Shown: piece after piece, positions 9,501 through 47,645 of the stretch
How positions within the stretch are numbered: the first letter of the stretch is position 1
Layout of the letters: every line of letters begins with the position of its first letter
Origin: Craspedostauros australis
Taxonomy: Eukaryota
DNA length: 64,000 nt
Direction of reading: 5' to 3'
Assembly (NCBI GenBank): GCA_030167865.1
Contig: JALAGF010006292.1
Coordinates: 1 to 64,000 of the forward strand
Notes under the pieces: generated by a model
Seen by the model: only the letters and a program-made list of their open reading frames with translations
Database searches by the model: none
What the model was told of the DNA's origin: nothing
Program-made: the position numbers and the translations under genes

Positions 9501-10071
9501 GCGAGCTGCTGTTCTGGGAGCGCGACTTTGCGGTGATGTCAGCCTCCAGGTCTTCGAGTCCTCGGTGGTCCGACGGGCGAGAGTAGGCGCCCGGTCGTGG
9601 CTTCCGGGGGCCGAAGTTGCGAGCTTGGGCCTTGGCGAGGATGTCGGATTCCGCCATCGCCATGCTGGAACGCCCAGTCGCAGACGCAGCTGGCGGGGGA
9701 CGCTTGGGGTAAGCGGTGGTTGCGGCAACACCGACGGGGGCCTGGCCCGACCGCAAACCGGCTTGACCGATGCCGGTTGTTGCAGGGGGGCGTTTGGACG
9801 ATGGCACTTGGACTGGTCTGGCTGCGCGTCGCTTCGCCTCGTCGTCGGTTTCCGCGGCGCCATTGTAGCGACGGCGCTGGTTGGCGATGCGGCCATCGAG
9901 GCGGGACAGCTCCTCGTCGGCTCGATTGCGAGATGCGCCGTTTGATTGTTGTTGCTGCTGCTGGCGATTGGTCGGTTGGTTGCCTTGATTGCCTTGATTG
10001 CGACCGGTGTCGCCAGCGCCATTGCTGTGGACGCCCTTCATGTCGTGCTTATGACTATTGGCGTTGTCCAT
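6530..10071 (-). CDS. Leucine-rich-repeat receptor-like membrane protein (type II, no kinase); exons 10071-8247, 7951-7607, 7116-6530
   Basis: Long low-complexity N-terminus, one TM helix (YVAIFAVLLIGGIVGIVLGV) and an LRR N-cap (QRYILALFY...WLSGEPECKWAGIAC). About ten plant-type LRRs (LxLxxNxLxGxIPxE) precede a C-terminal Cys cluster (ADC...CPVGCCTECC). GTAAGT donors and CAG acceptors keep the frame. Confidence 0.9.
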
Positions 10072-20500: not shown

Positions 20501-23500
20501 TTTTCTCAACATCAATCGATCGACCGCCGATGTCTGATTTGTGTCAATCATGCCACGGCCGATCTTGACTGGCCTGTCGTGCTTCCAATGTGCGCTTGCA
20601 CATGATCGAGATGAATACACAAGATATCTTACCTCGACAGTATCGCTCGTCCGGCTGCGGTCCGCGATCTTCCAAAGCAAGCCAATGCTGGTTAATGAAG
20701 TATTCACATCTTGCTTGGACAGTGCGAAAGAGAAGCAACATTCCAACAGCGCGGCGCTGCTTCCCGTGGCTTCGTCCGTGGCATCCAGGAAATCTTCCAC
20801 AATCAACCGCAGGCATTGGAATGCGGCTAAACAGCTGCCACCCCATTCATTGGAGTATCGCCCTTGCTGATTCACGGAGGCGATTGCATCGATCATCGTG
20901 ATCCAGGCGGCCCCCGCGAGGCGATGGCCCGCGCTTTCGATGATTGAGTGCATGGCCGCCAATGCACTCTCTGTGACCTGATGATTCTCCTCCTTCTGTA
21001 TGCAGGAACACAGCGGCAGAAGCAGATCCTTCTGCGTAATGTCCTGCGGGGTCTTTGCGGCTTCACCTTGTGCAGCGCTGCCGCCAGCACTGGCACTGGC
21101 ATCAGCGGATGCTTCGTTCGCTGTTTCTGCTGCTGCTGCTTCGACTATCAGGTATTGATTCTGACGTGGATCGGCGTACTTTATTCTGCTGGGCCCTTCC
21201 GAGATGGTTGCAATCTTGAAAGATTCGGCGAGGTGCGACAGGGTGATCATGGCGATGCTGTCGAATGCGAAATCCTTGTCGTCTCTGCTCTTCGATGAGA
21301 TGGAACACAGTTGCTGCGATATCGTTGGACCGATTTTGTCGAAGCGGTAGGCATTCGTCAGCGCGATGTCACAGAGCAAGGCTGTGACGAACCGCAGTCG
21401 GTCGGTGCGAACAGGGTGCTTGGAAGCGGCAAGTCTCTGTGACATCTCTGCCTTGTAGTGGTAACAGAAAGTCTCCTTCGTTCTGCTGGCGAGAGGGATG
21501 TCGTTTTCGTTTCCATTTGGATTCTCGCCTGCGCCATACAACGCACGGACACCCAAGTGAATGAGCTTTCCGCTGATCGTGCCCGCCTCTTCTTTCCCAC
21601 CGTGGTTGGTGCCGCCCATTTCCGACGAGTCCAACTTCGTCATTCCACTTGTGCCGGTGCCGGTCGGTATCTGAGATGTTGTCACGGCCACCTCCATGAG
21701 GCTTTCACTGAGAGCGTTGAGCGATTCATCGGACAGGCAGGTGGAGAATGCAGCGAATCGTCCAAACACGGCCGAGACGCACAGAGCGCTCTCGTAGGCG
21801 CTGTCGGAGAGTTCGGGCGATGCGATGTGCAGAATGGACAGCTCCTCAAACGTCTGCATGATGACTTGCCAATCCGATCCAATGTGGTCGTGGAGCTTGT
21901 GGACGACGTTGAGGAGGCATATCAAGGCGGCGACGTGATTGTCTCGCAATCTGGACTGCGCGTTTTGGTTGCCCCACTGCGGAAGCGACAGTTTGCATAG
22001 ACTCGAGAGGAGGGCGCATCTCTGCATCGGCCCAAACTTGAAGGAAATCGTCGCGAGTTTGTAGTATCCTTCGAGAGAGCGTTTGACGATCGTGCCGCTT
22101 GCTGGAAAGCGTTTGAGATAGTGCTGCAGCAGCGCCAGGAACGGGCTGAAGGCATCCTCAAAGACCGACGTCTCCAGCTGAGGATCCACCAGCTTCAGCA
22201 TGCCTTCCAGGCCCGTCCAAAGCGCGTTGCCGAGCACGTACTGCTGGTTGGAGTCTTTTCCATTCACCCACCACGTCGAATCATCCGTGGAAGTCGCGCT
22301 GTTCTCGGCAAGGAAGAGGAGGCTCTTGGGATGTCGACAGGCTCCCACCAGCAGTTGAATGTTATCCTGACAACTCGCGGCGATGGTGCAAAAGTCGCTG
22401 ACTGCCTCGACAAGGGGGACGAGGACATCCTGGTGCATCCAGATCGCTCTCGTTTCCGGCTGATGCACGGCCACTTTGATGGTCTCCAAGCAAAGACCAG
22501 CCTTCCACAGCGTCATGGGAGGCAGGCTCTTGACGACCTCGAAAGTGGATGGCGATGCATCGCCCGTCTGCCGGTACACGTAACCATCCTCGAACTCTGG
22601 CTGATGCCGCAAGGCTTCTGTGACCGTGGTGATCGGTTCAATGATATGCAGCATAATTTCGCGGCATTCGTTGGGCCAGGAATCGGCCTGAGTTTGGAAC
22701 ATGGTCAAGATGAATTGCAGGACGCGGATGAAGTCCAGCGGATGCGTCGGCAGCTTGGACTTGAGCTTTTGCAAGGTCTGAACCAGGATGCCCAATGTTT
22801 TGCGCCCGACGGTTGCGAACACCTTGGGATGATCCTGAAGCAGCTTCGTCATCAAGGCCATGCTGATAGCGAGGGAAGGGAGGATGGGCGAGTCCTTTTC
22901 GCTGACGCGGCACTGCGCGAATGCACCTTGGAACGCCTTCTTGGTGGCCGTTATGGGTGTCGTTGAGATACACGCTGCCAGATCCTCCCATGTCTGCATT
23001 GCAAATTTATCGTCGTTGCGGAACAGCAAGGTCAAAACGTGCGGGAGCGCTGACTTGGCCGCCTGGCGCACCACGGGTTGCTTCAATCTCAAAAACAGGC
23101 AGCAGAGCGTCACGGACTGCGTCCATTGCTCTTTGGTGACTGGCAGGTCGCCGAGTTCCAGGAGCTGCAGGAGGCAGCTGAGGATATCCAAGGCAATCTT
23201 TTCCAGGAATTTGGCATTGATATGTCCGGCGCCGGCCTGTCCATGAGACGACGATACGGCCGTTTTGTTGACCACCGAGTTTGCAGTCGATTTGACCGTC
23301 TCTGTGGCAGCGGCGGATGATGAGGAAAGAAAGCTTCCGAGCCATGACGAAGTGGATGCGAGTGTGCTGGCCGTGGTGGAGAATGGTGCGTTCGAGTCTG
23401 ACCGATCAAGGTCGCGCGATGACATGTCAGAATCGTCCTGTTTCGTGGTTGCTTTGGAAGTGGTCGCGTTGCCGGTCGTGGTGCTGCTATAGGAGACGAC

Positions 23501-24045
23501 GACATGTGCCTGAATGATCCACACCCGCACCATGTTCATCCCATCGCCGGGACATATGGCATTGGCTTCCATGAGGCTCTTCATGGCCTTGAAGGAGGTG
23601 TCAAGCAGCTTCGGTGATGCGTTTGGATAGTTTGCCGCGAGGAGGAATGGATGTAACAGATCTGACGACCGGAAGAGCGTCGTGTCTGGATGCTTCTCGC
23701 CTTGCGCCGCCGCTTTCCGCACGGCAATGACATACTGATTCTGAAGCGACCTCAGCTTCAAGATGGCTCTTTCCGACGCCTCCTTTACGCCTGTGCAGTA
23801 GTGTAGTCAACAAGGTAAGAAGATGGTGGGAGTTGCAGTAGGACGAACAGCATCAACGAAGAGCGACTGTGTGTGAGAGAGAGGGAGAGCAGTCTCAAGA
23901 ACAAACATCACGGCATGGAAGGGCCGAGCAACTCTCTGTTCTATTGATCATTCGTGCTGATGCCGACGAACGTACCTGGATGCTTCTTTCTGGCCTCTGC
24001 GCCCAGATCCCGCAGGTATTCCTCCAGCTGCGCGACGAAGTTCAT
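17565..24045 (-). CDS. MON2: Protein MON2 homolog (Arf-GEF-like scaffold); exons 24045-23976, 23790-20633, 20372-20325, 20111-19006, 18639-17565
   Basis: Spliced N-terminus MNFVAQLEEYLRDLGAEARKKHPGVKEASERAILKLR and LLHPFLLA match the MON2 DCB domain. HIGSDWQVIMQTFEEL, QDVNTSLTSIGLLWKIAD and DSRAEVRNCAVNTLF match the HDS region. Splice sites are canonical. Confidence 0.88.
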
Positions 24046-26657: not shown

Positions 26658-29600
26658 CTAATCCATCAAGAATTGACGCTGTTGGTCTGCGAGCTCCTGG
26701 GCCTTGCGACGTTTTGCGATGGCCTCCTTCTTGTCTCTCAAATCGGTTGCCATCTTCGCGGTGTCCTTGTCCTGCTCTTGTTTCTCGAACACGGCCTTCG
26801 CTGCGGGAAGCAGCAGCTTCAGCAACCGGTCCACGGCCTTGGGGCCGTTTCCAAAGTCCTTCACCACGAAGCGGGGGTACTGCTCGATGTCCACATCCTC
26901 GAACTTCTTGATTTGGTACGCGGATGAAATCTCCTTCATGGCCTCGATCTCTTCTTGATCCAGCGCGTCCCAGTTGTCGGCATCCTCGTTCATGGACGGG
27001 TCTTCCAAAAGCGCTTTCAGGTCGATCTTCGTACCTCCCACGACCTGCTGGTCATCCCCGGACAGCGTCAGACGTCCCGGGAAGACGGCGTCCAGTCCCT
27101 TGGTTGGAACGCCTCGTGGAAGCAGCGGGATGATCATGGCCCAGTGACGCGGTCGGAGTCCTGGAGAACGCAAGGCACAGTCGAATGTACCGTCCTCGTT
27201 CTCCACAAGACCCACCAGATCGATACCAAGTCGCCGAGTGCAGGCGTGCAAATGAAGCGTCTTCAATCGCACTTGGAGGGAAGGTGGCAACGGGCCATGA
27301 TTCTGCTTCCACGAGTTCGTCAGATCCACCAAACTGCTCGTGTTCTCGGCCAGACGGGCCTTCGTCTCTTCCGCACGGCGCACCAACGGATCTGGAATGA
27401 AGGACCTCGGGATTTGGAACGCCTGCACGCTCACCAGGTCGCCCTTCTTGTTCTTCTTGGTGACCCGCATGCTGCCCTGCTGGCCTGGCAGCAGGACGTT
27501 GGTACGTGGCACGAGCGGCAGATCGAGTCCGCGCAGCTGCCGGATGGACTTCTTGAGCATGCGCATGTACAGATCGAAACCAACCCTTGCGGCCATACCG
27601 CTTTGCTCGGTCCCCAGCAGACTTCCAGCTCCACGAATCTCGAGATCGCGATTGGCCACGTCGAAACCGGAACCCAATTCGTTCAACTCTCCGATGGCCT
27701 GCAGACGCAAGGCCGCTTGTTCTGTGACGGAGTCTTCGTTGTACAGGAAGTAGGCGTACGCTTGCTGGTCGGAACGTCCTACGCGCCCTCGCAGCTGGTA
27801 CAGAGTGGACATACCGAATGCCTGGCTGTTCTGGATGACAATTGTGTTGACGGTTGGGATATCCACTCCGTTCTCAATCACCGTCGTGGCAAGCAGAATG
27901 TCATGATTGCCTTCGGCGAACTGAGCAACGCTCTCTTCGGCACCATTGCGCGCCATGCGACCATGCGCGATGGCGATGCGAATACCTGGAAACAGACGGG
28001 CCAGCCTTTCTTGCGCATCGTCGATCATGGCGATTCTTGGCACGACGTAGTAGCATTGGCCGTTGCGGTCGAGCTCCAGTTGCACAGCCTCACGGATGAT
28101 GTCATCCTCGATGTTCTGGACGTAGCTGATGGTCGGTTTTCGCATGGGTGGGGGCGAGCGAATGGTGGAGGTGTCGCGAATGCCGCTGAGAGACATCTGC
28201 AAGGTTCTGGGGATGGGCGTGGCACTGAGCGTGAGCACGTCGATGCCGCTGCAAATCAGCTTCAGCCGTTCCTTCTGCTTGACTCCGAATCTCTGCTCCT
28301 CGTCGATGACGAGCAGGCCAAGGTCGTTAAATTTGATTTGGTTGGACAGGATCGCGTGGGTTCCGATAACCAGTTCAATCTCTCCGTTAGAAATGCTCTC
28401 ACGCAGCTCCCTGGCCTTCTTCGCACCCATCGATCCGCGTAGCAGAGCGATCTTGCGGGCGTGCTTCGTGCCTTCTCCCATCCGCTGTACGATGTTTTTG
28501 TAGTGCTGAGCCGCGAGAACTCCCGTTGGGGCCAGCAAGGCTGCTTGCCGACCGTTGGTGATGGAACGGAACAGGGCTCGTATGGCCACCTCAGTCTTTC
28601 CGAATCCAACATCTCCGCAAACCAGCCGATCCATCGGACGACTGCGCCACACCATGTCATTCTCGACGTCTTCGAAGCACTTCTGCTGATCCACCGTGGG
28701 TGTGTATTTGAAGCTCGTTTCGAAGTCCTTGACGATGTCCTCCTTGGTTGGATCGAACGGTTGACGTTGCAACGTTTCTCGGGTGGCGTACAGCGCGAGT
28801 ACGTCTTGGGCCAACGCCAGCGTATTCGCTTCCACCTTTTGCCTGGCCTTGCGCCATGTATCGCCCCTCACGCGCGATAGCCGTGGCTTGATGACGGCAT
28901 CGCCTGCTCGGTATCGGCTGATTCTGTAGGCACGCTCGACTGGAACATGGACGACGCCATCGGCGTACGAGATTTCAAGCACCGTCGTCTGAGGGTTGGA
29001 GATGGGGTCGGTATCCTCATCCGTTCCGAACTTCCCGCGGATGCGTTGAATGTAATCGGGGGTCACACCGCCGGAAATCTTCTTGAGTTCGCGTGTGAGG
29101 ATCTCCGCCCGTCGTGTGTCTTGTGCAGCTCTCTCTTCCTCCGTTAGCTTTCCCTTGGGTCGCCGGCAGGTCTTGTCGAATCGGCCGATTCCGAATTTGC
29201 GGTGGACGACGAAGTCGCCTGGGAAGACCTCGAGTTCCCAGCCTCCTGCGCTACCGACTCTCACTCCCTGAAGAGTGTCGCGAGACACGATCTTTCCATC
29301 CACGACGACAGTGTCTGCTGCCTCCGATTCACCATCCTCGACGCCATCGTTCTCATTTTCCATTGCGGCCCATTCATTTTCCAAGTCCTTGTCGACCTTG
29401 TTGTACCATCCGCTACTGCCTCGGCTTGTGCCGGCCACGATCTTGACGTCGCCGTTCTCATCAAAGATTGTATTCTCCGGAGCAGCCAGGATCTCAAGCT
29501 GAACGCCGGCCTGCGTGGCCAAATTCTGCTTGGCATCATTCTCGTCCTTGATCTGCTGCCGCATCTCAGCATCGACTTTGGCGATGTCTTCCTTGCTCTT

Positions 29601-30029
29601 GGCATCGGAAAACGCGCCCCATTTCTTCTTCCTTCGCTCCTCTCTCACCTTGTCGTTGTCCTCCTCCATCAACTCATCCAAGCGCTCCTTGCGACGCACG
29701 CGGTCGACATCGATGTCGTCGTCATCCTCCTCTTCAAATCCCCAGCTCACGCCGGAAACTTTCGAAGTCCCGAACTGAACGTTTACATCGCGCTGATTCG
29801 GATGGATGCCAGAAAGAGAAGTGAGGGACTGGCGTTTCCAGGCAGTGAGATCCTCACATTGATTTCCTGCCGCACGTTGTGGGGCATCGCAGTTTGTGCC
29901 GCGCGTTGATTTCATGGCGGCATCGCCGATCATCCATGGCTGCATGAATCCTCTTGATGTCGGAAGGGCCATCAGCATGATGATCTTCGTCAGAGCTGAC
30001 CATGGCTGCACGCATGGTCGTGGAGACAT
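26658..30029 (-). CDS. mfd: Transcription-repair coupling factor Mfd-like helicase, probably plastid-targeted
   Basis: CarD-like RID (PGDFVVHRKFGIGRF); SF2 motifs CGDVGFGKTEVA, DEEQRFGV, SATPIPRT and QLRGRVGR; TRG motif DLEIRGAGSLLGTEQSG. Signal-like N-terminus ending ...PTSRG/FMQP. Confidence 0.93.
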   Translation of the reverse strand: MSPRPCVQPWSALTKIIMLMALPTSRGFMQPWMIGDAAMKSTRGTNCDAPQRAAGNQCEDLTAWKRQSLTSLSGIHPNQRDVNVQFGTSKVSGVSWGFEEEDDDDIDVDRVRRKERLDELMEEDNDKVREERRKKKWGAFSDAKSKEDIAKVDAEMRQQIKDENDAKQNLATQAGVQLEILAAPENTIFDENGDVKIVAGTSRGSSGWYNKVDKDLENEWAAMENENDGVEDGESEAADTVVVDGKIVSRDTLQGVRVGSAGGWELEVFPGDFVVHRKFGIGRFDKTCRRPKGKLTEEERAAQDTRRAEILTRELKKISGGVTPDYIQRIRGKFGTDEDTDPISNPQTTVLEISYADGVVHVPVERAYRISRYRAGDAVIKPRLSRVRGDTWRKARQKVEANTLALAQDVLALYATRETLQRQPFDPTKEDIVKDFETSFKYTPTVDQQKCFEDVENDMVWRSRPMDRLVCGDVGFGKTEVAIRALFRSITNGRQAALLAPTGVLAAQHYKNIVQRMGEGTKHARKIALLRGSMGAKKARELRESISNGEIELVIGTHAILSNQIKFNDLGLLVIDEEQRFGVKQKERLKLICSGIDVLTLSATPIPRTLQMSLSGIRDTSTIRSPPPMRKPTISYVQNIEDDIIREAVQLELDRNGQCYYVVPRIAMIDDAQERLARLFPGIRIAIAHGRMARNGAEESVAQFAEGNHDILLATTVIENGVDIPTVNTIVIQNSQAFGMSTLYQLRGRVGRSDQQAYAYFLYNEDSVTEQAALRLQAIGELNELGSGFDVANRDLEIRGAGSLLGTEQSGMAARVGFDLYMRMLKKSIRQLRGLDLPLVPRTNVLLPGQQGSMRVTKKNKKGDLVSVQAFQIPRSFIPDPLVRRAEETKARLAENTSSLVDLTNSWKQNHGPLPPSLQVRLKTLHLHACTRRLGIDLVGLVENEDGTFDCALRSPGLRPRHWAMIIPLLPRGVPTKGLDAVFPGRLTLSGDDQQVVGGTKIDLKALLEDPSMNEDADNWDALDQEEIEAMKEISSAYQIKKFEDVDIEQYPRFVVKDFGNGPKAVDRLLKLLLPAAKAVFEKQEQDKDTAKMATDLRDKKEAIAKRRKAQELADQQRQFLMD

Positions 30030-30915
30030 GTTGGCCGTTCGTTGATGCTCTGTGGCTTGGAAGATGGACTAGCACAAGTACTTGTATTCGTACCGCGCAA
30101 TACTCCTGGCGTGGTACGAGGGTTGATGGACACCTCCTGACGTTGTTCCACCAGAGGGACGTCTACGGCAGCTCCGTCTTGGATTGGAGTAGAGTAGAGT
30201 GCTCTGGGGGAGGGGGGAAGGGGTCTGTTGTATTATATTATATTCTATAATATAATATGTACTCGTAGATTGCTTGTGAAGCACACGCAGCCAAGAAAGT
30301 GATGGTGACGGAGACTGTTGGGTGATGCTCGGTGTTGTGTTGGGTGATGATGGCTGTTGCGTTGTTGTTCTGCACCACAGAACAAACACATCGCTCCTCC
30401 CACCGTTGAGGTTCTTGGTGGCGAAATCTTGGAAGGTGTCATGGGTGTGATTGGTCCGGAGACGAAGACGAAAAAGTCTTTTCCGCGTCGGTCCATCCAT
30501 CCGGCACGCAACAATCCGGAAGTTAGTCCCGAGTTTGATAGTCATACGTGACTGACTAGCCAGAGAAATGCATAGTTCGTAGGATGGGAGCAGTATGTGG
30601 AGGTTGGAAGGCAGGTCAACTCTTGACTTCGAAGGACGACAGAAGTTGATCAAACAAGCGAAATGCACTAATCTACGACTTATTTCAGTATCTTTCTCAT
30701 CTAATGGCCCGAACGTGCGATTTGAAGTGCGACTCTTGCCTACGATCGTGTACATTCACAGATTTATGTGCGTGTACGCGTACGGGTACGTTTTGACGTG
30801 CGGATGGTGATGTTAGTTGCCTCTCTTGTTCGTCTTTCATTTGCTTGTTTCGGCTGTGGGTCCTGTATTGTGTGTACCAATACGAGCCACGGATATCCCG
30901 TCATTGTGGGACGGT

Positions 30916-33900
30916 TCAATCATCGAGAGACTCGTCATCGCTGTCAGACTCATCTGGTACTCCAAGCCAGTGCTTGACAATTGAGAAGCCGACCTTGGAT
31001 GACATGTCCAAGTGATGCAAAAGCTCATCGGCGTCCTTGGTGAGGTCGTAGTAGGAGAATGGACGTTCGGGATCATTCCTGTTGAACCATTCATGTCGCG
31101 GAACATCAAATTTTAGTGAATCGGCGCATATGCATCAACATGGGTGTAGCCAGGTGGGCGACGTTGATTCGAAGTACGAGGATAGGCATGACGAATGCGT
31201 GTGATGGGAGCGGTGATGAAGGTTGGCAATCGAAGATGGTGGTGAGTTTTTTTTTTGGCAATGGACAAGCAGTAGAACAATAAACTTTGAATGTGAACAC
31301 GAAGAAGAGCAAAGCGCATCTTCTGGCGGACGAAGTCCTCCAGTGATTCTCAGGAACAGCCAGCCAGCAGCAGTAGCGGTAGCAGTAACCGCTGCAATAT
31401 TGACGGTCGCATTTGTCTTGCCACCCGCGTCAGGCAGACGTACCAATCGTAAAGTTCTTCATCAATGACATCGCTGTCGGCGGCAAGGAGTGGATACGAA
31501 AACATGGCGGACTCCACCTGTGGGATGTATGCGTTGATGGACGGGACCTGGCTGAAAGGAATCCCCATATCGTCACCAACACTCTTTGAATTTTGGGCAT
31601 GCAAGGGAGCGTATCATACCATACCACAATTTGAAGGTGGCGACAGCATTGTGTATTCGTAGATGTTGGTGAGAAAAATGTTCGAATCACAATGATGATG
31701 ATCATGATGTGATAGTTGTGGCGAATGAAAGACACAAGCGACGAGTAGGAAAGGCGAGTCTCGCGGAGTGTGAGTTTAAATCGAGGAGCGACCGCGTAGG
31801 AGTGGGATGATGACTGTCTGCAACATCATGGACACAGGAATGGGCAATCTCCAACCGCCATTTTGTAAATGTCTCGCCCTGCACATAATACTGTCACGGA
31901 ACACTTTGCACTACTCACCTTGTAGCTTGAGCGGAACAGGCTCAACCATCCCTTCAACCATCCCAGGAAGAATACGAAGGCGACGACACCGCTGACGGCG
32001 ACGGTGGACCAACCGTAGATGAATGTAATCGTCTCCTGCTCTTCCGTCATCCATCGGTCTTCGCCCTGCTTCGAAGGAATGAATGGGAATCCAGGCGAGG
32101 CCAGAGTTCCTGAGCCGATGAGATTCTGTCGACAGTACCGGTAGTCGGTGTCGTCAGCCACGATGCTGACTTGATGGGTGTCCCCGTTTTTCGCAGTGAT
32201 GGTGTAATCACCGACATAGGAACTGCTAACAACAGTGTCGTTCTGGCACAAGTTGTCGTATGGGAATCCAGACCAGTAGTACGACGACAGGACCGCCATG
32301 GCAACGCATGCCAGAGAGAAGAAGTATCGTCGGCTGAACTTGGAGACATCGGTACCGAGATGTGGCGGGCGCTTCCATGTTCTCATCAAACTGAAGCGAT
32401 CAACATAGTAACTGATGAACCTGCTCGTACATTGGCGAGGTGGAAAGTGATTGTGGAGCGTGGATACCAAACGTGCATTCGTGACAGGCCAATACAGACG
32501 ACCATGTGTTGTGGGGAATATGTAGAGTATTCCACGTCGCACCATACATTGTGTTGTGTATTGCATTGCGTTGTAACATCGGTATGTTGGTTGGAACGGC
32601 CGTGTTAGACATGCGATGGGGACATGTTTTGTTGGAAAGGGAAAAAAAAACACATGAGGACGGATCATGCGTAGAGGACAATGAGTTTAATGCACAGAAG
32701 AATGAGTAAATTAATGAAGCGATCGAATGAAGCATCAACCCAAGTCTCGATGCGAAGTCAGGAGACGACGAAGCAATCTGGCCGTCCATATCATGCACAG
32801 AGTACTTACAATGCGATCGAGCAAAGGAAGAATGCGCCAGGGAACAAGGCACAGTACCACAGCGCCAAGAACAGGAGCTTTGTCATGTTTGTGTAGCTGT
32901 CAGCCGTTGGAGGCGTTCAGAGAGCGTTTGCAGGTGGATGTAAGACGTCAACAAAGAGCAAATGGATGAGTGAGTGGTGGACTGTACCGTGCATACATAG
33001 ATGTCGATGGTGCACTGACTCGTGAGGTGTTTCGGGAAGAGTTGGGCAACGCCAACTTCATCTGATAAACAAGCAAACAAACGAGTGCGGCGATGTACGA
33101 ATACAAGCCCACACGTCCAACACCGGCTGCGCTTGTCATTTGATACTGGGGATACGTTTCTTGGCGGCGATGCAGCTAGATGGTCGACCAGTTGAACCAC
33201 TCCTATCCACGCGGGATGGTATCAACCATTCTACATGTGCACACATTTGTACGTACCGTTCAGCAAGCTCGAAGGCTTCCCCTTGGAACATGAGATTCAT
33301 GGCATCCTGCGAGGTGGCACGAGGCGCGAGCAAGTGACGGTTAATGTGCCCCGTTGGGTCCGCCAACTGGAGACTGTTGGTCGTGACGATATCAGCGAAG
33401 AACAATGCAGCAGCCTGCACGGCCACACCGTCATCTCCACAAATGGTGTCCGTGAAGGGTGTGATGATCGTGATGACGAAGGCAGTGTTGACCCAGCGGA
33501 ATGCGGCAATCTTGAAGTACAGCGACGTTTGTTTGCTGCCCTCTGCTCCGTGCGCCTCCATGTCCGTGAGTGCTTTGGCGAGCATGGGGAAGATGACGTT
33601 GGCACCAGAGATGGCGAACGCCGAACCGAAAGTTGAGATATGGTTCGCAATGTTGACGAGGAACACAACAGCAACAATGGCGAGCACCGTGCACACACAA
33701 GTCAAGAACTGCTGCTTGAGACGGTCCTTGTATCCGGCGTTGAGGTCTTGCCAGCGGATCGTGTTGGGTTCATCCGGTTCATCGACCATGAGGACCTTGT
33801 TGCCGCGGAAGAGGTACTTGGGATCCTTCAAGGCGCGGCGGTTGTTGCGAGAAGCTGTGAGAGAGCCGACGCTGAGCTTGGAGAGTACTTTGCGCTGATC

Positions 33901-35727
33901 TGCTTCAGTCTCGAAGATGAGAAAGACCCGGGTGACGGGGTAATCGAGCTGGGCCAGCCCTTGCACCTTGGCATCTAGGGCGACTAGACGATCGAACTGC
34001 TCCGGTATTCCACTCACGAATAGGGACATGATTTTTTTAAATCCCTTGCGATCACGCTCCTCCTCTGTTGCGATGCGTGCCAGGTTGAGCACGTCGAGGG
34101 ATGTTCCAGGTTCCAACGTGTACTGCAGCTTGCGAAGCAACTCTCTTCGCTCGACAAGGGTCCGGACCAAGATGTCATTGTCGACGGCGACGGTACAGAC
34201 CGTGACTCGCGCATCGCAGGCCTTTTTGAAGAACTGCTTCCACTCGTCTGGATCGTTGGCATCCTCCGGTGGGTTTTCAACGACCACGGCGTAGTCCTGA
34301 GCAGTCTGCTCATCTTCGTCGAATTCAACTTCTTGCTTGCGCAGGTAGGCCGAGAGGAGCATGGTGCTGATGAGAACCACGATCATGGTGATGTAGTTGA
34401 CAAGTCCAAGGCGCTCAGTGACCTCGCAGTTGTTCTTGAGGGCAAATGGAAGACCTGTCTCGTTCGAGAATGCGCAGCGCGAGGCAGTGAACTGATACGC
34501 ATCTGCGGCGCAGTCGCAATCCGGGCACGGCACCCAGGTCCGGTCGCTGCAGATGGCGGATCCTTCCACGAGGAACGGCAAGCTGTGCACGTCCAACGAG
34601 GCATCGCTGTAGTCGGAGCTTGCGAAGTAGATCATGTTCGGAAGATTGATGCAGCCTGCAATGAAGGTGATCATCGCAATACCACGGAGGGTGGAGAAAT
34701 ACAGGCCGAGACCCAAACCGAAGTCTCCCAGCTGTCGTCGGCGTCGTCGTCATCATCGTTTGCACCGTTGATGTTGCATGTCGCAGAGGGGGTCATTTTT
34801 GTTGCCGTTGTCGTTGCCGTTGTCGTGCAGTAGGATGTTGAGCATTTGTTTGTTTGTTGATTGTTTGTTGGAGTGTTGGCGTATGGATCCGGGGATCGGG
34901 AGGTCAGACGGAGTCCGATGACCGACGATCGAGGATGGGATCACCAAGCACATGGAACAGGGGAGGAAGAAAGAGAGATGGGTGAGCGAGGAGGCTACAA
35001 CGTTGAAGGAAGTTGGCAGGAGAACAAACCGCACGAGCGGCGCAGCAATCACGAAAGCAAGCCGCCATTCTTCGCAGCTTCGGCATTCATCGAGATTCAT
35101 CAGCGTGGCGACATGACGTTGACTTACCTGGGAATGAGGGGTTGCAAAGGGCGCGTAGAGTTTTGTCGGAACCGTCTTCTCGCCTGGTTCTGCCCGATCC
35201 AGCTGGTCGACACCGGTAGAAAGGGTCTTTCGCAGCGTCCGTGCCACGAAGCTCTTGCGGTTGTTCGTGTTGGGATCCACGATGTATCGGCTGAGCGCCA
35301 CGTGCTCGAAGTATGCCCAGGCTCTCTCCAGAGACGGTTTCTCCACGTGGGCCGTGAGAGGCTGGCCATGCGCCGACAGCGACGAGAGCATCTCATCGTC
35401 GCCGGCTTCTGATGTCTTGCCCTCCTCGCCGGCTGCCGGGTTGTACCACTTCTTGCTCATCATCGACAGGGCGATGCGGCGGCCGTAGGTCATCTCGCTG
35501 GGATGGTCGTTGAGGAAGTCGATGTTTCTGCGGGACCTGCCACCGACAGCGCCGTAGTTTGCCGACCCAGGCTGCCCGTTGGTGTCCCCGTCCGCCCCAT
35601 CATCGCTGCGCGCATCGTAGTACCCGCTGAACAGGATGGAGGCCTCCTCCGGATTCGTGACGATCTCCTCGCTCATCAAGGTGCGACCGCTGGGCCTCTG
35701 TCTTCGTTTGCTGCCTGCTGCACCCAT
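30916..35727 (-). CDS. OSCA/CSC1/TMEM63-like multi-pass membrane protein; exons 35727-35128, 34731-33257, 32896-32810, 32420-31919, 31583-31444, 31078-30916
   Basis: GLGLYFSTLR, DEDEQTAQDYAVVVENPP, EPDEPNTIRWQDL (OSCA-type APEPxDIxWxNL) and SYYVDRFSLMR, with many TM segments. Six exons join in frame (one AAG acceptor). The MGAAGS start is a possible N-myristoylation site. Confidence 0.8.
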
Positions 35728-40187: not shown

Positions 40188-41960
40188 AAGAGCTGACCGC
40201 ACAGTCTTGGAAACTCTTCTTTTCGGCACTTCTTTCACAAGCGTGCACACTGCTTGGCGGATGTCGCGAGTGTTGGCATCAGATCTTCGCTGCAGAATAC
40301 AGCAATTCCGTGGAACAAGAAACGCAGTTTGTTGCTTCGGACCCTTCATTGGTGGCCGCAACTTCTTCGATTCGAAGTCCTCGGAAGAGGCGCAGCACAA
40401 TGCACAGGCAACCGAATGGCACCATACACACGCCACAGAACACACGGGTGATTCCCTCATTCCATTGTACAATATCTGAATACATCCATCATGTAATACA
40501 CTAGAACACCATGCGTACATATAATACCTTCACATCTTACATGTTCCCAACATCTTGAAATGGACGATCCGTCCCTGCAGTAAACCATGAATGTATGTAC
40601 GATCTACACGTACCGATAGCTTGCATTAGCAGGAGCGCTGTAAAACATCGTTTGGGTATGAGAATGCGGCCGCCAATTTAGAGGAGAAGCAACCCTTCCC
40701 AAGAGCACGTCCTGCCGGTCCATGGCATTTGCGAAGGCGCTCTGCGTATTCGAAACTGTGCTGAATGAAGCATGTCTTCTTGGGTGGGAGGTGACGCACC
40801 AGAGCAAGAAGCGCCTCCATCCAACCCAAACCACAGTCGCGATTCTTGTGAGCGACAAGAATAGAGTACTACTACACCATACTGGGACGGACCGGACCCG
40901 AGCACAATATGCCCGTGTTTTGGAATGGCACAGTGCAAGGACAGAACAGAGGCACAACAACACTTTCTCTCGAATGTTATGACACACGAACATCATCAAC
41001 GCCATTGATTCTGATCACTACGCGGACTGGTCCATGCCCATCACAAAACAAAGTGGAGACAGCCGAGAACAGAAGAGCTTTTGGAAACCTTTGGCGCCAA
41101 AATTTGTGAAGGATGCGGAAACCTTCGTTTTCTCCCTTGGGGAGTTTTTGAAAGGATGGATGTCGCGGTTCGCAACGAGCGAGCCAGCCATGTTGATCCA
41201 ACGAGTCGAATGTCAGGCAAAATGACCCGACTTGAATGGCTTGCGGATCTTTCCCGTCTGGACATGGAAACGAACACCACTAAAAACGCCACCGTTTTGC
41301 CTTCTTGTTTTCTCTTTCTGCTTTTCCTTCAGCAGTTTCTCGCTGTGCTTTCCTTTCGTTGTTGCGTTCTCGGCGAGTGTCTTTCATCATGAACTTCTTT
41401 TCTGTCTTCCGTATCAGCAGAAGCAACAACGGGAGGCACACGATCAATCGGTGTGAACAACAATTGAACACCAAGAGAGAGAGACAGCATCATTGGTGGA
41501 TGCTGATACAACCTCTTCATTCGCACAAGCATTGACACGCAAAGGAGCAAAGAAGCAAACACAAAAGCAGGAGCAACCTCGAGCAACAAACAATCAAATA
41601 CTACACGGACTCAAGTGTTGACTCTTGAAAGTAACAGCATTGCTTCACCCTCCACCTTTGACGTCACCATCGCCTTCACCATTGCGACCGCAACCGCAAC
41701 GAACAGAACAGAAAAGGCACAAGAGACGTGAATTCGAGAAGCAACGCTCGACACGAACACAAGACGACGGAAACACACGATCGACGCTACTCGTACCGAC
41801 ACTCTGCCATATCGTACAACTTTGTCAGAGAGAAACTGAACGAAGACAGTTGAGCCAGCATCATCATCACAGATTATCTGCAAGTGAACAATTCTATTAC
41901 ATAGCATACTCCTATTGGAAACAATACAACTCCATACAGAATAGCAGCGCAAAGGCAAAG

Positions 41961-42671
41961 ATGGCGGCCGAGAGCTCAGAACACTTCGACGAGTGGGCGA
42001 CGGGGTCCATGAGGGACCTGGCGCAACGGATGGATGACATCGACAAGCAGCTCGAGGAGATCGTGGACTCCACGAACGACGAGACCGGAAGCGGCGATGG
42101 GGACAAGAACGGAGGTGCGCCAGCGGGAGGTGACGATCCGCAACACAGCGACGGCGAGGAAGAAACTGCCCTCAACACATCGACGATGAGCAGAAAGCAC
42201 GCCACCGACACCTCCACAGTTGGCGACTTTGACGATTACGACGACGATGATGACGATCCCACCGAGCACGACTACGACATGGCACTGGGCGACCTGCAGA
42301 GCGAGCTCAACGAGGTCAACGCCGCCGCCGTTCGATCCGCCGTGCCTCCAAAGGCCGACGACTTCCAAACGGTCCAAACCCTCGTCACTGTCTCCGTCAA
42401 GAAGCCGTCGAAGGAGGCGACTGTGGGAATTTCCATGAAGACCGTCAAGGGCGTCACGAGGATCACGGCGATCCGGCACAATGGACTGCTCAAGGACACC
42501 GACCTCAAGCGCGGCTACGAGATACTGCAAGTCAACAACGTCCCCGTGAAGAACGCGAGGCATGCCCGCTTCCTCATCCAGGAAACGCCGAGCGTGGTCA
42601 CGATCAAAACTCGCATCCGTCTCGATCCAATGCCAACGCCGAAACCTGTCGATCTGACAAGGACGAAGTAG
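41961..42671 (+). CDS. PDZ-domain protein with acidic N-terminus
   Basis: The C-terminal VSVKKPSKEATVGISM...ITAIRHNGLLKDTDLKRGYEILQVNNVPV...VTI fits the PDZ pattern. Strong C/G-ending codon bias. Confidence 0.8.
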   Translation: MAAESSEHFDEWATGSMRDLAQRMDDIDKQLEEIVDSTNDETGSGDGDKNGGAPAGGDDPQHSDGEEETALNTSTMSRKHATDTSTVGDFDDYDDDDDDPTEHDYDMALGDLQSELNEVNAAAVRSAVPPKADDFQTVQTLVTVSVKKPSKEATVGISMKTVKGVTRITAIRHNGLLKDTDLKRGYEILQVNNVPVKNARHARFLIQETPSVVTIKTRIRLDPMPTPKPVDLTRTK

Positions 42672-44084
42672 TGGCCCATGGTTCAGAGACACACAGAGAG
42701 AGTGCGGTTGCTTCGTCAGCAATCCCCACAGCGGATCGCGCTGCGCCTGTCTCTGTTCATCATCGAACAGATCAGCAATTGGTCAACCTTGACTTGGTTG
42801 CTGGAAGACTGGTAGTTGCTTTTTGCTGTGAGTTGCCGCAGCAGCAGACGCGGCTTTCGAACCAACCCTCGAAGGAGAACACATGATGGCGCATTGGTGC
42901 CAGCGAAAGAACGAGAAAGCGAGAGAGAGAGAGAGATACAGGGTGAGAGTTTAGTATGGATGCGGGAAAACGAAAGAGACACGAAATATAGCATGATCCT
43001 TCACTTGTACGCTCTCCATCAGAACGACGCGTTCCTCATTTTCGGTCTGTTTGAAGCGGACGCCGCAGCTCTCGCTTGTCGAAGGAGGGACACATTGTGG
43101 GCGCAACCACAAATGCACCAGGGTGCTCTCGCTCTCGCTCTCTCTGCCTGTCACTTCGCATCAGAAGGATTCGATACATAGTACAGCACTATTGGGAACA
43201 TCCTACTCTCCTCTGTTCGGCTTGTATCATACTCATAGTATACCGTTTGGACATGCACACGCACGCGGCAGAGGCTGAGGCTGAGGTTCACAGATGCGCA
43301 GTTCGAAATGGTCTGCTTTACACGATCGGCGACGACGGCTGCAACAATGGAGCAAGGCATTCAGAAGTTGCTTGCGTCCCTCTCATCATCCTCCGATCCC
43401 ATTTGGCTTCTTGCTTTGACATCATTCTCACCTAGCCACTCATCTGCAAAGGTGCGCTTCTCATTGAGCAGAAGAGAGCAGAGTAGAGTAGAACAGAGTG
43501 GGCTCTCTTTTGAACCTGCTATGTCGTGCTGGCGACTGGCGAATTGTGCGGAAAAGCGGCGGCGTTGGAACGCAGCGCGTGTTGCGGACTGGCGGAAGTT
43601 ACAAGATCGGTCGGAGAGGGCAGAACTTTGGGTATCTTTTCACTGTCAGTATGTGGTTGTATTGTTCATGTCTGTCTGTTCATACTCGATTTCTGAACAC
43701 GACTGCTTCGTTTGAAGTCAACTTACACGGGTGACTGAAGTACGTTTTTATGTCAATTAGTATCCTCATCAACAATGATTGAACATCCAGTCCTGAACTC
43801 GCACGACTAGCAGTCGTCAAAGATCCACACGAAACTTTGCTGGCAAAGATGCCAGGTGGAACTGTTTTGTGTTGTTTGGTTTCGAAGAGTTGTTGTCGTT
43901 CATCTTTTGCGCGGATCAATCATCCAACCAACCACCAAGACATCATCACAATCCTAGTCGCGATTGCAGTTGTAGTCGTACTCGTATCAATACAACAACA
44001 CTACAACAACAACGCAACAACAATACAACATCTGGGACAGACACAACCAACGCCGCGTCCTTCTTCGCATAGCATTCTATCGAT

Positions 44085-46015
44085 ATGATGTCGCGAACAA
44101 CCTGCAATGTGGCGTCTGCGGCACTGCTGATGCTGATTCCATTGATGTCCCTGTCGGATTGTCGGCAGGAGGTGTCGGCAGCGCCCTTCCATGCCACCGC
44201 AGTCTCTGGGCGCCATTTCAGTGGAAGGCCTCATCCATCGGCTCTGTCGGCCACGGCAGCCAGATCTGTGCCTCTGCATCTGCAGTTGCGTGGAGGCGCG
44301 TCCGGTTTGGCCACGGCAAGTGGTGATGACGAGGAGGTCGAGGGTCTGGATGACGAAGACGCAGAGGATGAGGATGACGAGGAGGAAGAGGAAGAGGAGG
44401 AGGAGGATAACGCACCACCGATATCCCAGCTGCCAGTCACCATCATCGTGAAAACCAACCTGGGCAACGAAATCATGGATCAGACGGTGATGGTCACTGC
44501 GCAGCGAACTAAGAACATTGAATTCCTCAAGACCACCATCGCGCGGCAGCTGCCTGGCAAGCCACCGGCGTTGGCGCTCGACATTGTGCACGAAGGACGG
44601 ATCCTGAATGACGATGTTCTTGTCGATGAATTGATCGATGAAGAAGATGACGAAGACCGCGACGATGGCGATGACGATGACGATAGTAGCGCGGAGAAGT
44701 CCATCAAGCTGACGGTGAACATTATCCCACCGGTCGACCATCAATTTGCAAAGGATCTCTTCCCCAAATTCGTACGCGAAGCCAAGCGCAACGGAGATGC
44801 TGCTGTAAACCTAAGTGCTGATCCGAAAGAGTTCATTCCCACAGAGGACATCGTGCGCGCGTACTACCTCAACCAGGCGGCCATGCAACGCAACGCGGCG
44901 CTCCTCGCCAACCCAGACGCGCCGCAATCGGCATTCTTGCGCATGGAGATGATCCAGGAGGCGGATGAGATGCAAAAGGCCCTGCGGGAGCAAGTCCCGG
45001 ACGATGTTTGGGAGGAAAGCATGGTGTCCGTCACCAAGACCCACACAACCGAGGAACGACGAGGCCAGCGGTATCGAACCGGCAAGGGAGGCGCCAGCAC
45101 CAACCTGAAGGCCCAAATACAACGGAACCTGAACATTGTAAGTACCAAACAAGCGTGACGCAATGCTCGTATGCAACAACAACAACAACAACAACAGTGA
45201 CAACGTTGGTCCTGAGCGTTCAGCGCGCGGCTGACAATGTTGGATGATCATGAAATGTATGTAACACAACCGAGCCGTTGACATCGCGGCGATATATTCC
45301 CGACAACTGTCACTCACACCTTGCATCGTCTTTGCGCGGCTCCACATGATGTCAACAAATGGACTGTCCTCCTCTCAATGCGATGCTCTTACGTTCGACG
45401 ACAACAACTACGGCAACAACGACGGCAACAACGACGGCAACAACGACGGCAACCTCTTGCTTTCATGCCATCGCATTTGCATCTCGCACGTGGTACACAC
45501 ACACACACACACACACACAACGCCCCCCTTTACGTGCGCACGCACATTCATTATCATAGAGCTGGCCCGAAACACTTCGTGCTTGCTTCTTATTCATCAT
45601 CCTTGGATTTTTTGGTGGCAAGAGCACCCTGAAGCGCAAGCTCCTTCTGCTGTGCGCCCCCATGTGCTTCGTCGTGCAGGCAAGACCCTCGAAAGTCCTC
45701 CTCAAGCAGCTGTTTTACATGATGGCGAATCCACCCAAGTTCATCCTCAGCTTGATGCCCGTCTCGCAGCAGGCGATCTTGTCGTTCGACGAAAATGAGG
45801 CTTTTCAGACCTTGTACGGAAGAAGCTTGGAAGGGCAGGGCGACGATGAAGAGGGTGACGACATGGAAGGTGCAGAAGATGATGACGAAGAGATTGAGGA
45901 AGCGGACGAGAACGAGGACGAGGATGAAGACGATGAGGAAGATGCTGATGAGTACGACATCGATGAAGAAGAGGAATATGATGACGAGGATGAGGAGTAT
46001 GACGAAGACGAATGA
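44085..46015 (+). CDS. Signal-peptide-bearing ubiquitin-like (HERP/Usa1-like) membrane protein; exons 44085-45137, 45560-46015
   Basis: Hydrophobic N-terminus, then an LQLRGG motif and acidic tract. UBL fold pattern (VTIIVKT...IEFLKTTIARQLPGKPP...IVHEGRILNDD). Two adjacent hydrophobic segments in exon 2 and an acidic tail. Phase-0 GTAAGT/TAG intron. Confidence 0.75.
45401..45518. repeat. 12-bp minisatellite (CGGCAACAACGA)x~4 plus (AC)n, intronic
   Basis: Read directly within the intron of the UBL gene. Confidence 0.85.
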
Positions 46016-46634
46016 ACGTTGAACCTCGAACATTGAGACAAGCAAGCCTGATGCAGCACAGATAGACCACAGCGACAGCTGCTGCCAATAACAACCCCTC
46101 GAGTGGGTCAGTTCTAAAAATTCAGTCTCCATTGTTTGGCCCAAGTACGTCCAAGTGCTGCCGGGTATGGTAGGTTGTACTCTAGCAAATGTGAGAAGTC
46201 ATTGCCTGCGAAGCAATTGTATCTTGGATGGCCAACTAAAAAAGTAATCGCGCCAAAAAAGAATATCTCCGCCTGTGCCAAAATGATGGGGTCGTTAGTG
46301 TGGGATGGTTCCGAACCCGAGCCCTCACGGCGCCACGCGCGGGCCCATCCCAACTTGTTCAAACGTGAAGTTCAATTTAGAATATAACTACAACTAAAAC
46401 ACCCACACAAGCACATCGAAAAACAATCAACACCCGTTTTTGCCCAACAAACAAACCCCAATGTGTTTTACAAATACCTGACTTGTTCTGCGAGTATTGG
46501 TATTTTCATCAACGTCAACCCTCTCTGGTCTTATCCTGCCCTATCCCAAGCATTTGTATGTATATTCCGAAACGCTTAATCCACATACTTGGACGCTGCA
46601 CTTGTACCTCTCTGGAGAATCTACCAGACTTTAT

Positions 46635-47645
46635 CTACAATTCATCGTCGTCGCTGTCATCCTCGAATATGTCGCGTTCAGGGAAGTTGCCAACTTGAAC
46701 GTTCTTGCCGCGCACGAACCCTGCGTGCTTGTCCATCGCTTCAAAGTAACGCCTGCCCTTGACAGTACCGTCGGTCTTGCCAACTGGCTCGTCGAAACGG
46801 ACGCCAACCCAGTGTCCTCCGACTCCAAGTTCGGGGACCTTGCCAACGTACGCAACGGTCCCTCTCCTCGAACCAGGCTGCACTTCACATCTCTGCTCGA
46901 GGCGAATCTCGGCAACGCTCGTCTCTCCGAACTCCTCGCTGTCGGCTGTCACAGATGGCGAACTGGCGGAGCTCATCGCCCCGCTGTCGATGCCACGGTC
47001 GTCGTCGCTTCTCGCCAGCTCACCTTTCGCATCCACATGGAATCCCTTGGGCAAGGGCAGACCCAGCTTGTGCTGCCGCTTGGCATCCACCATCTCGCGG
47101 TGCTCCTTGGCATGCCTGGCGAGCGTGAACGTCGGGTCCTCCTGCTTCTTTTTGCGACCCCAGTCCCGCAACGTGCCGCTGCGCTTGTTGTACTCATCGT
47201 CGGACAGACGGAACTTCTGCACCAGCGACGTGTCCTCGTACTGACCGCCGCTGCTGGCGGAGTGCGGGTTCAGATCGACGCAGTGGACCTCCATGCCATG
47301 CTGCAGGCCGAAGTAGCCCAGCTTGCAGCTGTCGTCATGTTCCGGCGGGATCTCCACAATCACGTTGCCCGAGCTCTTGATCTGCAGATGCTGGTGACCT
47401 GGCGGCGTGCCCGTCTTTTGGTGGATGCGCTGCTGCAGCGTGCTGAGCGCGTCGTGCAGGTTGAAGCGGACCTCGACGTGCCTCTGCACGAGGTTGGAGT
47501 GCGTGAGATCCAGCACCACCGTGTTCTTGTGCACGTCATCGTACTGCGTCGCATCCTTCGCTTGGATGTACGCCTTCAATGCCAGCAGGTCTCTGTTGCG
47601 GATGATCGGCTTGCTGCCTGCCGTTGGTTGCTGAATTGCGCTCAT
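46635..47645 (-). CDS. TBCB: Tubulin-folding cofactor B (UBL + CAP-Gly)
   Basis: N-terminal UBL (LTHSNL...TGTPPGHQHL...LGYFGL...VHCVDLNP), EDTSLVQKFRLSDDEYNKR, and CAP-Gly (WVGVRFDEPVGKTDGTVKGRRYFE...GFVR) ending GNFPERDIFEDDSDDDEL. Confidence 0.95.
   Translation of the reverse strand: MSAIQQPTAGSKPIIRNRDLLALKAYIQAKDATQYDDVHKNTVVLDLTHSNLVQRHVEVRFNLHDALSTLQQRIHQKTGTPPGHQHLQIKSSGNVIVEIPPEHDDSCKLGYFGLQHGMEVHCVDLNPHSASSGGQYEDTSLVQKFRLSDDEYNKRSGTLRDWGRKKKQEDPTFTLARHAKEHREMVDAKRQHKLGLPLPKGFHVDAKGELARSDDDRGIDSGAMSSASSPSVTADSEEFGETSVAEIRLEQRCEVQPGSRRGTVAYVGKVPELGVGGHWVGVRFDEPVGKTDGTVKGRRYFEAMDKHAGFVRGKNVQVGNFPERDIFEDDSDDDEL

Follow-up and report, generated by a model that had tools for sequence, protein, structure and literature searches.

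A ubiquitin-like membrane-hairpin protein family of diatoms with a bipartite-type presequence, a candidate adaptor for the periplastid SELMA translocon

In diatoms and their relatives, most plastid proteins that are encoded in the nucleus cross the second plastid membrane by way of SELMA, a symbiont-derived machinery that resembles endoplasmic reticulum-associated degradation (ERAD). The SELMA membrane parts sDer1-1, sDer1-2 and ptE3P are nuclear-encoded, carry bipartite presequences, reside in the periplastid membrane and are derived from ERAD; the parts lists, as given in the excerpts used here, comprise derlins, a RING E3 ligase, Cdc48 and cofactors, and name no adaptor that combines a ubiquitin-like (UBL) domain with a membrane hairpin (PMC3101018, PMC12412216; all other papers cited below are likewise drawn on in excerpt). 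Such adaptors are described for other complexes. Usa1, Dsc3 and TMUB1 each have a UBL domain and two C-terminal membrane helices and link an E3 ligase to the rest of the complex; the role reported for the Dsc3 type is to tie the E3 ligase to a rhomboid pseudoprotease, and the UBL domain of TMUB1 has been proposed to recruit p97 (PMC11555709). Here, we describe a gene of Craspedostauros australis, at positions 44085-46015 on the plus strand of a 64,000-nt stretch of DNA (assembly GCA_030167865.1, contig JALAGF010006292.1, positions 1 to 64,000; hereafter the window), whose product belongs to a conserved diatom family that is so far unnamed and uncharacterised. The protein may be a UBL adaptor that is anchored in the periplastid membrane and acts for the SELMA translocon as Usa1, HERP or Dsc3 do for theirs, a reading to which we give a probability of about 0.42.

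The gene fills 44085-46015 with two exons, as read from the open reading frame and its translation, and the spliced product has 502 amino acids (aa) and a net charge of −75. A sequence-only reading of this DNA had described a HERP/Usa1-like ERAD scaffold with a signal-like N-terminus, an S/A/R-rich linker, a UBL domain, a long spacer, paired hydrophobic segments and an acidic tail. All of these elements are indeed present, and they are more than a chance arrangement, since the same domain layout recurs in the inspected members among the best 150 of 390 representatives of the family. Two features had been overlooked, the intron (45138-45559) and a conserved R-G-G motif. The features are as follows, with exon-2 residues numbered from 1 at base 45560 and confidence given as the predicted local distance difference test (pLDDT):

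44085..45137, plus strand: exon 1 of 351 codons (phase 0), beginning with the ATG and ending in ...QRNLNI, with a GTAAGT donor at 45138
44085..44162, plus strand: signal-peptide-like N-terminus, aa 1-26, hydrophobic core aa 9-23, Kyte-Doolittle peak of 2.4-2.7 at aa 9-20
44163..44288, plus strand: transit-peptide-like stretch, aa 27-68, rich in S/A/R/H/P, net positive, with no lysine and no acidic tract
44289..44297, plus strand: conserved R-G-G, aa 69-71, in the context L-Q-L-R-G-G-A-S, at the boundary between basic and acidic sequence
44325..44408, plus strand: first acidic (D/E) tract, aa 81-108, from the translation; pLDDT <50 in the model of orthologue P0002
44433..44726, plus strand: UBL (beta-grasp) domain, aa 117-214; an acidic loop precedes the final strand
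44727..45059, plus strand: PPVD motif and helical spacer, aa 215-325; helices 219-306 in the P0002 model, pLDDT 80-91
45060..45137, plus strand: basic juxtamembrane motif RGQRYR-x-GKGG ... QRNLNI, aa 326-351
45138..45559, plus strand: intron, 422 nt, GT...AG, phase 0, containing microsatellites
45560..46015, plus strand: exon 2, 151 codons and the stop TGA (46013-46015), in open frame directly after ...TCATAG
45563..45679, plus strand: hydrophobic helical hairpin, exon-2 helices aa 2-18 and 23-40, uncharged runs of 13 aa (8-20) and 12 aa (28-39), basic loop
45683..45820, plus strand: post-hairpin region with an amphipathic helix (exon-2 aa 42-54), a PP-x-I-x-LSL-x-P motif and three short helices
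45824..46012, plus strand: acidic, Tyr-containing C-terminal tail, exon-2 aa 89-151, 73% D+E

A search with exon 1 returned 16 relatives, and a family profile built from 15 sequences then extended the family to 390 cluster representatives (E<=1e-3, among 1.84 billion), 238 of them at E<=1e-10 and 155 at E<=1e-30. The nearest relative is just 51-53% identical to the window protein. All eight members that carry an organism name are diatoms, namely Stauroneis constricta, Leptocylindrus danicus, Asterionellopsis glacialis, Thalassionema nitzschioides, the JGI set Psemu1 (which we take to be Pseudo-nitzschia multiseries), Mediolabrus comicus, a Bacillariaceae metagenome-assembled genome and Thalassiosira exigua; most other members are metagenome proteins, and of 20 representatives looked up on deep branches just one, that of Thalassiosira exigua, had an organism name. 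The eight span the diatoms from radial centrics to raphid pennates, which makes the family at least pan-diatom. A search started from the most divergent member, P0156, found no match beyond itself.

The gene model is well supported by these relatives. The exon 1 ATG at 44085 is the first after an in-frame stop, the stop-to-stop frame beginning at 44073, and the predicted junction reads ...QRNLNI/SWPETLR.... The full-length relatives P0002, P0012, P0013, P0014 and P0017 read ...QRNLNI-NW-x-(T/S)-IR... uninterrupted and continue into the same hydrophobic segments; since they run straight across the QRNLNI join, the splice junction is confirmed. Exon 1 is 51% identical to P0002 over 68% of the query, and exon 2 aligns to the C-terminal part of full-length relatives with 29-50% identity in most rows. 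The QxNLN[IV] motif is present in 152 database members; the hairpin follows in 79, an early stop without a hairpin in 60, and neither in 13. The 60 hairpin-less gene calls end <=45 aa past the motif, and in 59 of them a Val codon, that is GTN as in a donor, stands directly after it, from which it follows that the intron position is conserved and old. Gene calls have run through this conserved phase-0 donor, so that hairpin and acidic tail are lost (P0003-P0011, P0015, P0016 and others), and with 60 of 152 motif-bearing members stopping past the donor, public annotations of the family are often truncated. The intron holds microsatellites, namely a CAA run, a 9-nt AACGACGGC repeat and a CA run, at 45167-45206, 45400-45455 and 45487-45531, the first and last of these intervals also being flagged as repeats. 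In run X1, the kind of which is guessed, a single contig spans 45424-46096 unbroken and thus includes the 3' part of the intron; it has no bearing on splicing. Two antisense open reading frames, 44001-44741 and 45590-46132, were rejected as genes; they are Leu/Ser-rich shadows of the GAA/GAG-rich coding strand.

The fold of the UBL domain is, on the structural models, certainly a beta-grasp. The AlphaFold2 model of orthologue P0002 shows it with pLDDT 83-93; Foldseek matched this model to ubiquitin and UBL domains at E about 1e-3, and VIA-align to ubiquitin, ISG15, SUMO and many UBL domains at Z 9.5-11.0, so that UBL matches filled the fold-search rows for the full-length model. Which kind of UBL domain this is can be said less firmly. 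In Pfam, Dsc3_N (PF10302) is the best family match of the window protein (aa 128-199, E 9.7e-5, 23.3 bits, the cut-off being 25.4), ahead of ubiquitin (PF00240, E 0.18, 12 bits), and the orthologues P0008 (25.9) and P0007 (25.4) reach the Dsc3_N cut-off. Among 32 diverse members at E<=1, Dsc3_N was found in 14 (best 1.5e-6) and ubiquitin in 11 (best 1.2e-6). The family profile against all PDB sequences had the UBL domain of HERPUD2 on top (2kdb, E 0.0036), followed by that of HERPUD1 (1wgd, E 0.15) and RAD23 UBL domains (0.46-0.81), the rows between HERP and RAD23 being acidic low-complexity matches. HERP UBL domains also had the top identities in the VIA list (26% and 23%, Z 9.9-10.0). The resemblance to the HERP-type UBL that had been noticed by eye thus holds as far as the PDB sequence matches go, and it is not exclusive, Dsc3_N fitting at least as well; the label HERP/Usa1 is for this reason too narrow. 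Altogether, a HERP/Dsc3 flavour of the domain is consistent with these searches, the sequence signal being weak.

The protein is not the apicoplast-type ubiquitin derivative PUBL/sUb. The latter is likewise a beta-grasp protein behind a bipartite presequence in a red-plastid lineage and is described as a conjugated ubiquitin derivative (PMC12412216), whereas ubiquitin PF00240 matches the window protein at just E 0.18. Unlike in PUBL, the UBL domain of the family is internal, and about 290 aa including the membrane hairpin follow it.

UBL domain and hairpin are connected by a long helical spacer that opens with a nearly invariant motif (P213, P214 and V215 of P0002 in the family alignment). No Pfam family matched the spacer in the window protein and 32 members, and no conserved Cdc48-binding motif (SHP, VIM or VBM, in their consensus forms) was noticed in it by eye. 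The basic juxtamembrane motif that follows has R317, G324, Q334, N336 and N338 (P0002 numbering) nearly invariant. An AlphaFold2 model of the window exon 2, made with 54 aligned sequences, has pLDDT 88-93 over aa 1-50 and thus over the hairpin, whose hydrophobic runs have medians of 13 and 13 aa in the family and are joined by a basic 6-aa loop (n=80). Post-hairpin helices are modelled at 42-54, 60-64, 68-74 and 78-86 with pLDDT 82-88, and K45, Y53, L65, P67, P69, Q71 and Y86 of exon 2 are nearly invariant. The acidic tail is modelled as disordered (pLDDT 52-58 in all but one 10-aa block). Outside the UBL domain, the searches gave no name. No Pfam match was found for the C-terminal part at E<=1 in 32 of 32 members; the fold search with the exon-2 model had a best Z of 6.1 to generic helical hairpins, and no HERP, Usa1 or Dsc row; and when the hairpin region was compared with the ESM Atlas by features, the best scores were 0.84-0.87, to unnamed clusters, which is below lead level.

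How does this compare with the known adaptors? HERP (HERPUD1/HERPUD2) and Usa1, the scaffolds of Hrd1-type ERAD, share with the family the order of UBL domain, long spacer and two-helix membrane hairpin. Unlike them, the family has a signal-peptide-like N-terminus, a basic stretch, the R-G-G and three acidic tracts; its hydrophobic runs measure only 12-13 aa, and its hairpin is preceded by a conserved basic motif. Canonical HERP and Usa1 are not known to have a signal peptide; in the family, a hydrophobic N-terminus and a basic stretch precede the UBL domain in 105 members. Dsc3, of the fungal Dsc/Tul1 Golgi ligase complex, and its remote relatives TMUB1/TMUB2 share the UBL domain and two C-terminal membrane helices. 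The family differs from Dsc3 in the spacer between UBL domain and hairpin, which is much longer (about 130 aa), in the presence of a presequence and in a C-terminal part without Pfam match, Pfam having a separate model for the Dsc3 C-terminus. Since a presequence is present and no likeness is detectable outside the UBL domain, we do not file the protein in the HERP, Usa1 or Dsc3 families. The idea of a HERP/Usa1 counterpart is supported by the layout of UBL domain, spacer and two helices; structural likeness to HERP was found in the UBL domain, where it is tied with that to other UBL domains, and not in the fold search of exon 2.

With the SELMA membrane parts, the protein shares nuclear encoding and, by composition, a bipartite-type presequence; it belongs to neither the sDer1-1, sDer1-2 nor ptE3P families. 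As far as the excerpts of PMC12412216 show, it is also not among the 21 SELMA components analysed there. The earlier suspicion that a periplastid HERP/Usa1 counterpart is so far undescribed agrees with what we found: the excerpts of the SELMA literature describe no UBL-hairpin subunit of the HERP/Usa1/Dsc3/TMUB1 kind, although further papers could name the protein, and a term look-up inside the available text of PMC3045029 gave 0 occurrences, while one inside PMC3101018 likewise brought up no description of such a protein.

The presequence was compared in 105 members, all of them starting with Met and showing both a clear hydrophobic peak and an R-G-G. The N-terminal hydrophobic run has a median of 14 aa. 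It is followed by a basic stretch that has a median length of 44 aa and a positive net charge in 100 of the 105 (median +3); in the window protein, the 50 aa that separate the hydrophobic run from the R-G-G have a net charge of +2 and 0 Lys. Behind the R-G-G the charge reverses, the next 40 aa having a median net charge of −19. The sequence up to the R-G-G is not conserved across the family alignment, as expected for targeting peptides. By composition, the bipartite pattern of a signal-peptide-like and a transit-peptide-like region is family-wide, in agreement with what had been suggested for the single N-terminus. Periplastid presequences lack Phe at +1 and tolerate early acidic residues according to ASAFind 2.0 (PMC12136025). 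The window protein would fit this pattern, as judged by eye: D25 and E29 stand close behind the hydrophobic core, and no aromatic residue is at a plausible +1 position in the window protein and most orthologues.

An alternative for the N-terminus is an uncleaved signal anchor. The protein would then be a TMUB1/Dsc3-type adaptor of the host ER or Golgi, with the UBL domain and the acidic tracts in the cytosol, and would serve ordinary ERAD or Golgi quality control. TMUB1 has an N-terminal membrane helix in addition to its C-terminal pair, and an uncharged N-terminal run of at least 20 aa is found in 13 of the 105 members; the best Pfam match is Dsc3_N, and the class to which Dsc3 and TMUB1 belong is described as having a UBL domain with two C-terminal membrane helices (PMC11555709). 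However, the run is shorter than 20 aa in the other 92 members, the C-terminal part is without Pfam match in all 32 members searched, and the N-terminal segment together with the 44 aa behind it is conserved in its charge pattern and not in sequence and ends in a nearly invariant RGG. This pattern is easier to reconcile with a presequence that is removed than with a structural anchor, and we regard the host adaptor as unlikely.

At the border between basic and acidic sequence, RGG is present in 98 of the 103 members that align over the profile columns in question, and another 3 have RAG; among shuffled N-terminal 150-aa stretches, RGG occurs in 2.7%. The residue before it is L in 44, P in 21, I in 14, V in 9 and M in 4 of the 103, and S or A follows in 76 of 108. 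Arg at −3 or −2 is reminiscent of M16-type processing peptidases. In diatoms, the consensus of stromal cleavage sites combines hydrophobic Leu at −2 or −3 with a −1 residue that is small or charged, and the mature protein begins with Ala or Ser and continues with net negative charge (PMC3774753), and the [L/I/V/P]-R-G-G-[S/A]-acidic pattern resembles such a stromal processing-peptidase site. It is tempting to speculate on this basis that the protein travels on into the plastid, as far as its envelope, stroma or thylakoid, with the R-G-G as stromal-type cleavage site and the UBL domain as a plain interaction module; a Phe behind a plausible signal-peptidase site in some orthologues, seen by eye, would agree with it. 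On the other side, the window protein and most orthologues lack an aromatic residue at the plausible +1, and a ubiquitin system is not known from inside the plastid. Moreover, stromal cleavage sites are degenerate (PMC3774753) whereas the R-G-G is nearly invariant. Import beyond the periplastid compartment thus seems highly improbable.

The R-G-G probably marks the end of a removable presequence; as a motif, it stays unexplained. The window sequence L-Q-L-R-G-G resembles the tail of ubiquitin-type modifiers. L-x-L-R-G-G is found in just 9 of 97 members and P-R-G-G in 20 of 97, for which reason mimicry of a ubiquitin tail is kept only with low probability, and none of the papers listed for periplastid terms contains LRGG. 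A bolder proposal, very unlikely in our estimate, combines these elements: a SELMA linker of the Usa1/HERP/Dsc3 type whose [L/I/V/P]-R-G-G-[S/A] would be the first defined processing site of a periplastid resident, cut by a dedicated periplastid peptidase or, bolder still, as a ubiquitin-tail mimic by the deubiquitinase ptDUP, upon which the exposed acidic tracts would act as trans-side acid receptor or ratchet for the basic transit peptides that leave the channel.

The sequence of events favoured here is as follows. The signal peptide would bring the protein into the chloroplast ER, the basic transit-peptide-like stretch would carry it across the periplastid membrane, and the presequence would be removed at or beside the conserved R-G-G. 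The mature, extremely acidic protein would then be held in the periplastid membrane by the short two-helix hydrophobic hairpin, and its UBL domain and the two acidic tracts would face the periplastid compartment. In this position, the protein may play an adaptor role like that of Usa1/HERP in the Hrd1 complex or of Dsc3/TMUB1 in the Dsc, RNF185 and gp78 complexes, a class whose members connect a RING ligase with a rhomboid pseudoprotease of the derlin type, recruit Cdc48, or do both; the corresponding partners in SELMA would be ptE3P, sDer1-1/sDer1-2 and sCdc48. Behind a signal peptide, the periplastid compartment is the sole site known in diatoms with ubiquitin, E1, E2, ptE3P, ptDUP and Cdc48, beside sDer1-1/sDer1-2, as far as the excerpts of PMC3101018 and PMC12412216 go. 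Because this compartment holds a ubiquitin machinery and the Usa1/Dsc3/TMUB1 class shares the layout of UBL domain and two helices, an adaptor of SELMA is the most economical reading.

Several observations weigh against a SELMA adaptor. With 12-13 aa, the hydrophobic runs fall short of ordinary membrane-spanning helices; they suggest a re-entrant hairpin or a site of thinned membrane, and their shortness would also keep the protein from being arrested in the ER translocon en route to an inner membrane. All UBL rows of the fold search, those of HERP included, lie within 1 Z of one another, and the Dsc3_N score of the window protein stays below the Pfam cut-off. No likeness to HERP, Usa1 or Dsc3 was found outside the UBL domain in the PDB profile search, in Pfam or in the exon-2 fold search, and the combination of UBL domain and hairpin could also have arisen by convergence. 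About 12 orthologues (e.g. P0010, P0217, P0050, P0070, P0097) have, by eye, a Phe right after a plausible signal-peptidase site, and in diatoms Phe at +1 marks stromal, not periplastid, proteins. N-terminal lysines are reportedly needed for passage through SELMA, to go by the title of a 2015 study by Lau et al., and the window stretch has no lysine. Finally, core SELMA parts occur in several red-plastid lineages (PMC12412216), whereas the named members of the family are diatoms only; the spread over ochrophytes, haptophytes and cryptophytes that had been expected does not show in these eight names.

A periplastid protein need not work in SELMA. It could anchor Cdc48 or the 20S proteasome for protein turnover, or its acidic tracts could be a trans-side receptor for basic transit peptides heading to the next translocon. 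The evidence from targeting and from the UBL domain is the same as for the SELMA adaptor, and the sequence does not separate the two. A net charge of −75 over 502 aa would suit an acidic receptor, and a periplastid 20S proteasome without 19S cap has been described together with a second Cdc48 (PMC3101018); yet acidic tracts are common in disordered proteins and are here poorly conserved in length, and we consider such a function decidedly unlikely. The pattern of conservation bears also on the idea of an acidic membrane protein of the secretory pathway or ER lumen outside ubiquitin biology, involved in calcium binding or in cell-wall or silica formation, with the R-G-G as propeptide site. Such a protein would account for the signal-peptide-like N-terminus, the restriction of named members to diatoms, the extreme acidity and the Tyr-containing acidic tail. 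What is conserved best, however, are the UBL domain, the basic juxtamembrane motif and the hairpin, and not the acidic tracts, and the basic 44-aa stretch would be given no role; this leaves only a faint chance for a secretory function.

The genes around this locus are of various kinds. A convergent neighbour on the minus strand (46635-47645), 620 bp downstream, encodes a Ubiquitin_2 UBL domain (E 1.8e-19) and a CAP-Gly domain (E 1.4e-20), a layout that is presumably that of tubulin-folding cofactor B; the proximity of a second UBL gene is probably a coincidence. Upstream, an open reading frame of 236 aa on the plus strand (41961-42671) has an acidic N-terminal half and a C-terminal half that is PDZ-like by eye; the longer frame 41622-42668 has no Pfam match at E<=1e-5. 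A long frame on the minus strand (26658-30065) has CarD/TRCF RID, DEAD and Helicase_C domains and thus the layout of a bacterial Mfd/RecG-type helicase in a eukaryotic nuclear window; its product may be an organelle-targeted repair helicase. Two further frames on the minus strand, one with Mon2/Sec7/BIG1-like DCB and HDS domains (20321-23803) and one with an anoctamin-like domain (33136-34746), are ordinary eukaryotic genes by appearance. The GC fraction is 0.62 at 8001-10000 and 0.45-0.57 elsewhere in the window.

The absence of the hairpin from truncated gene calls may explain why these proteins have so far not been recognised as membrane proteins. For the UBL-hairpin adaptor that joins the ligase to the rhomboid pseudoprotease in the Hrd1 and Dsc complexes, the SELMA lists have no counterpart. 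A pan-diatom UBL-hairpin protein with a bipartite-type presequence is a concrete candidate for this vacant adaptor role, and its nearly invariant R-G-G could give a first handle on how presequences are removed from periplastid residents.

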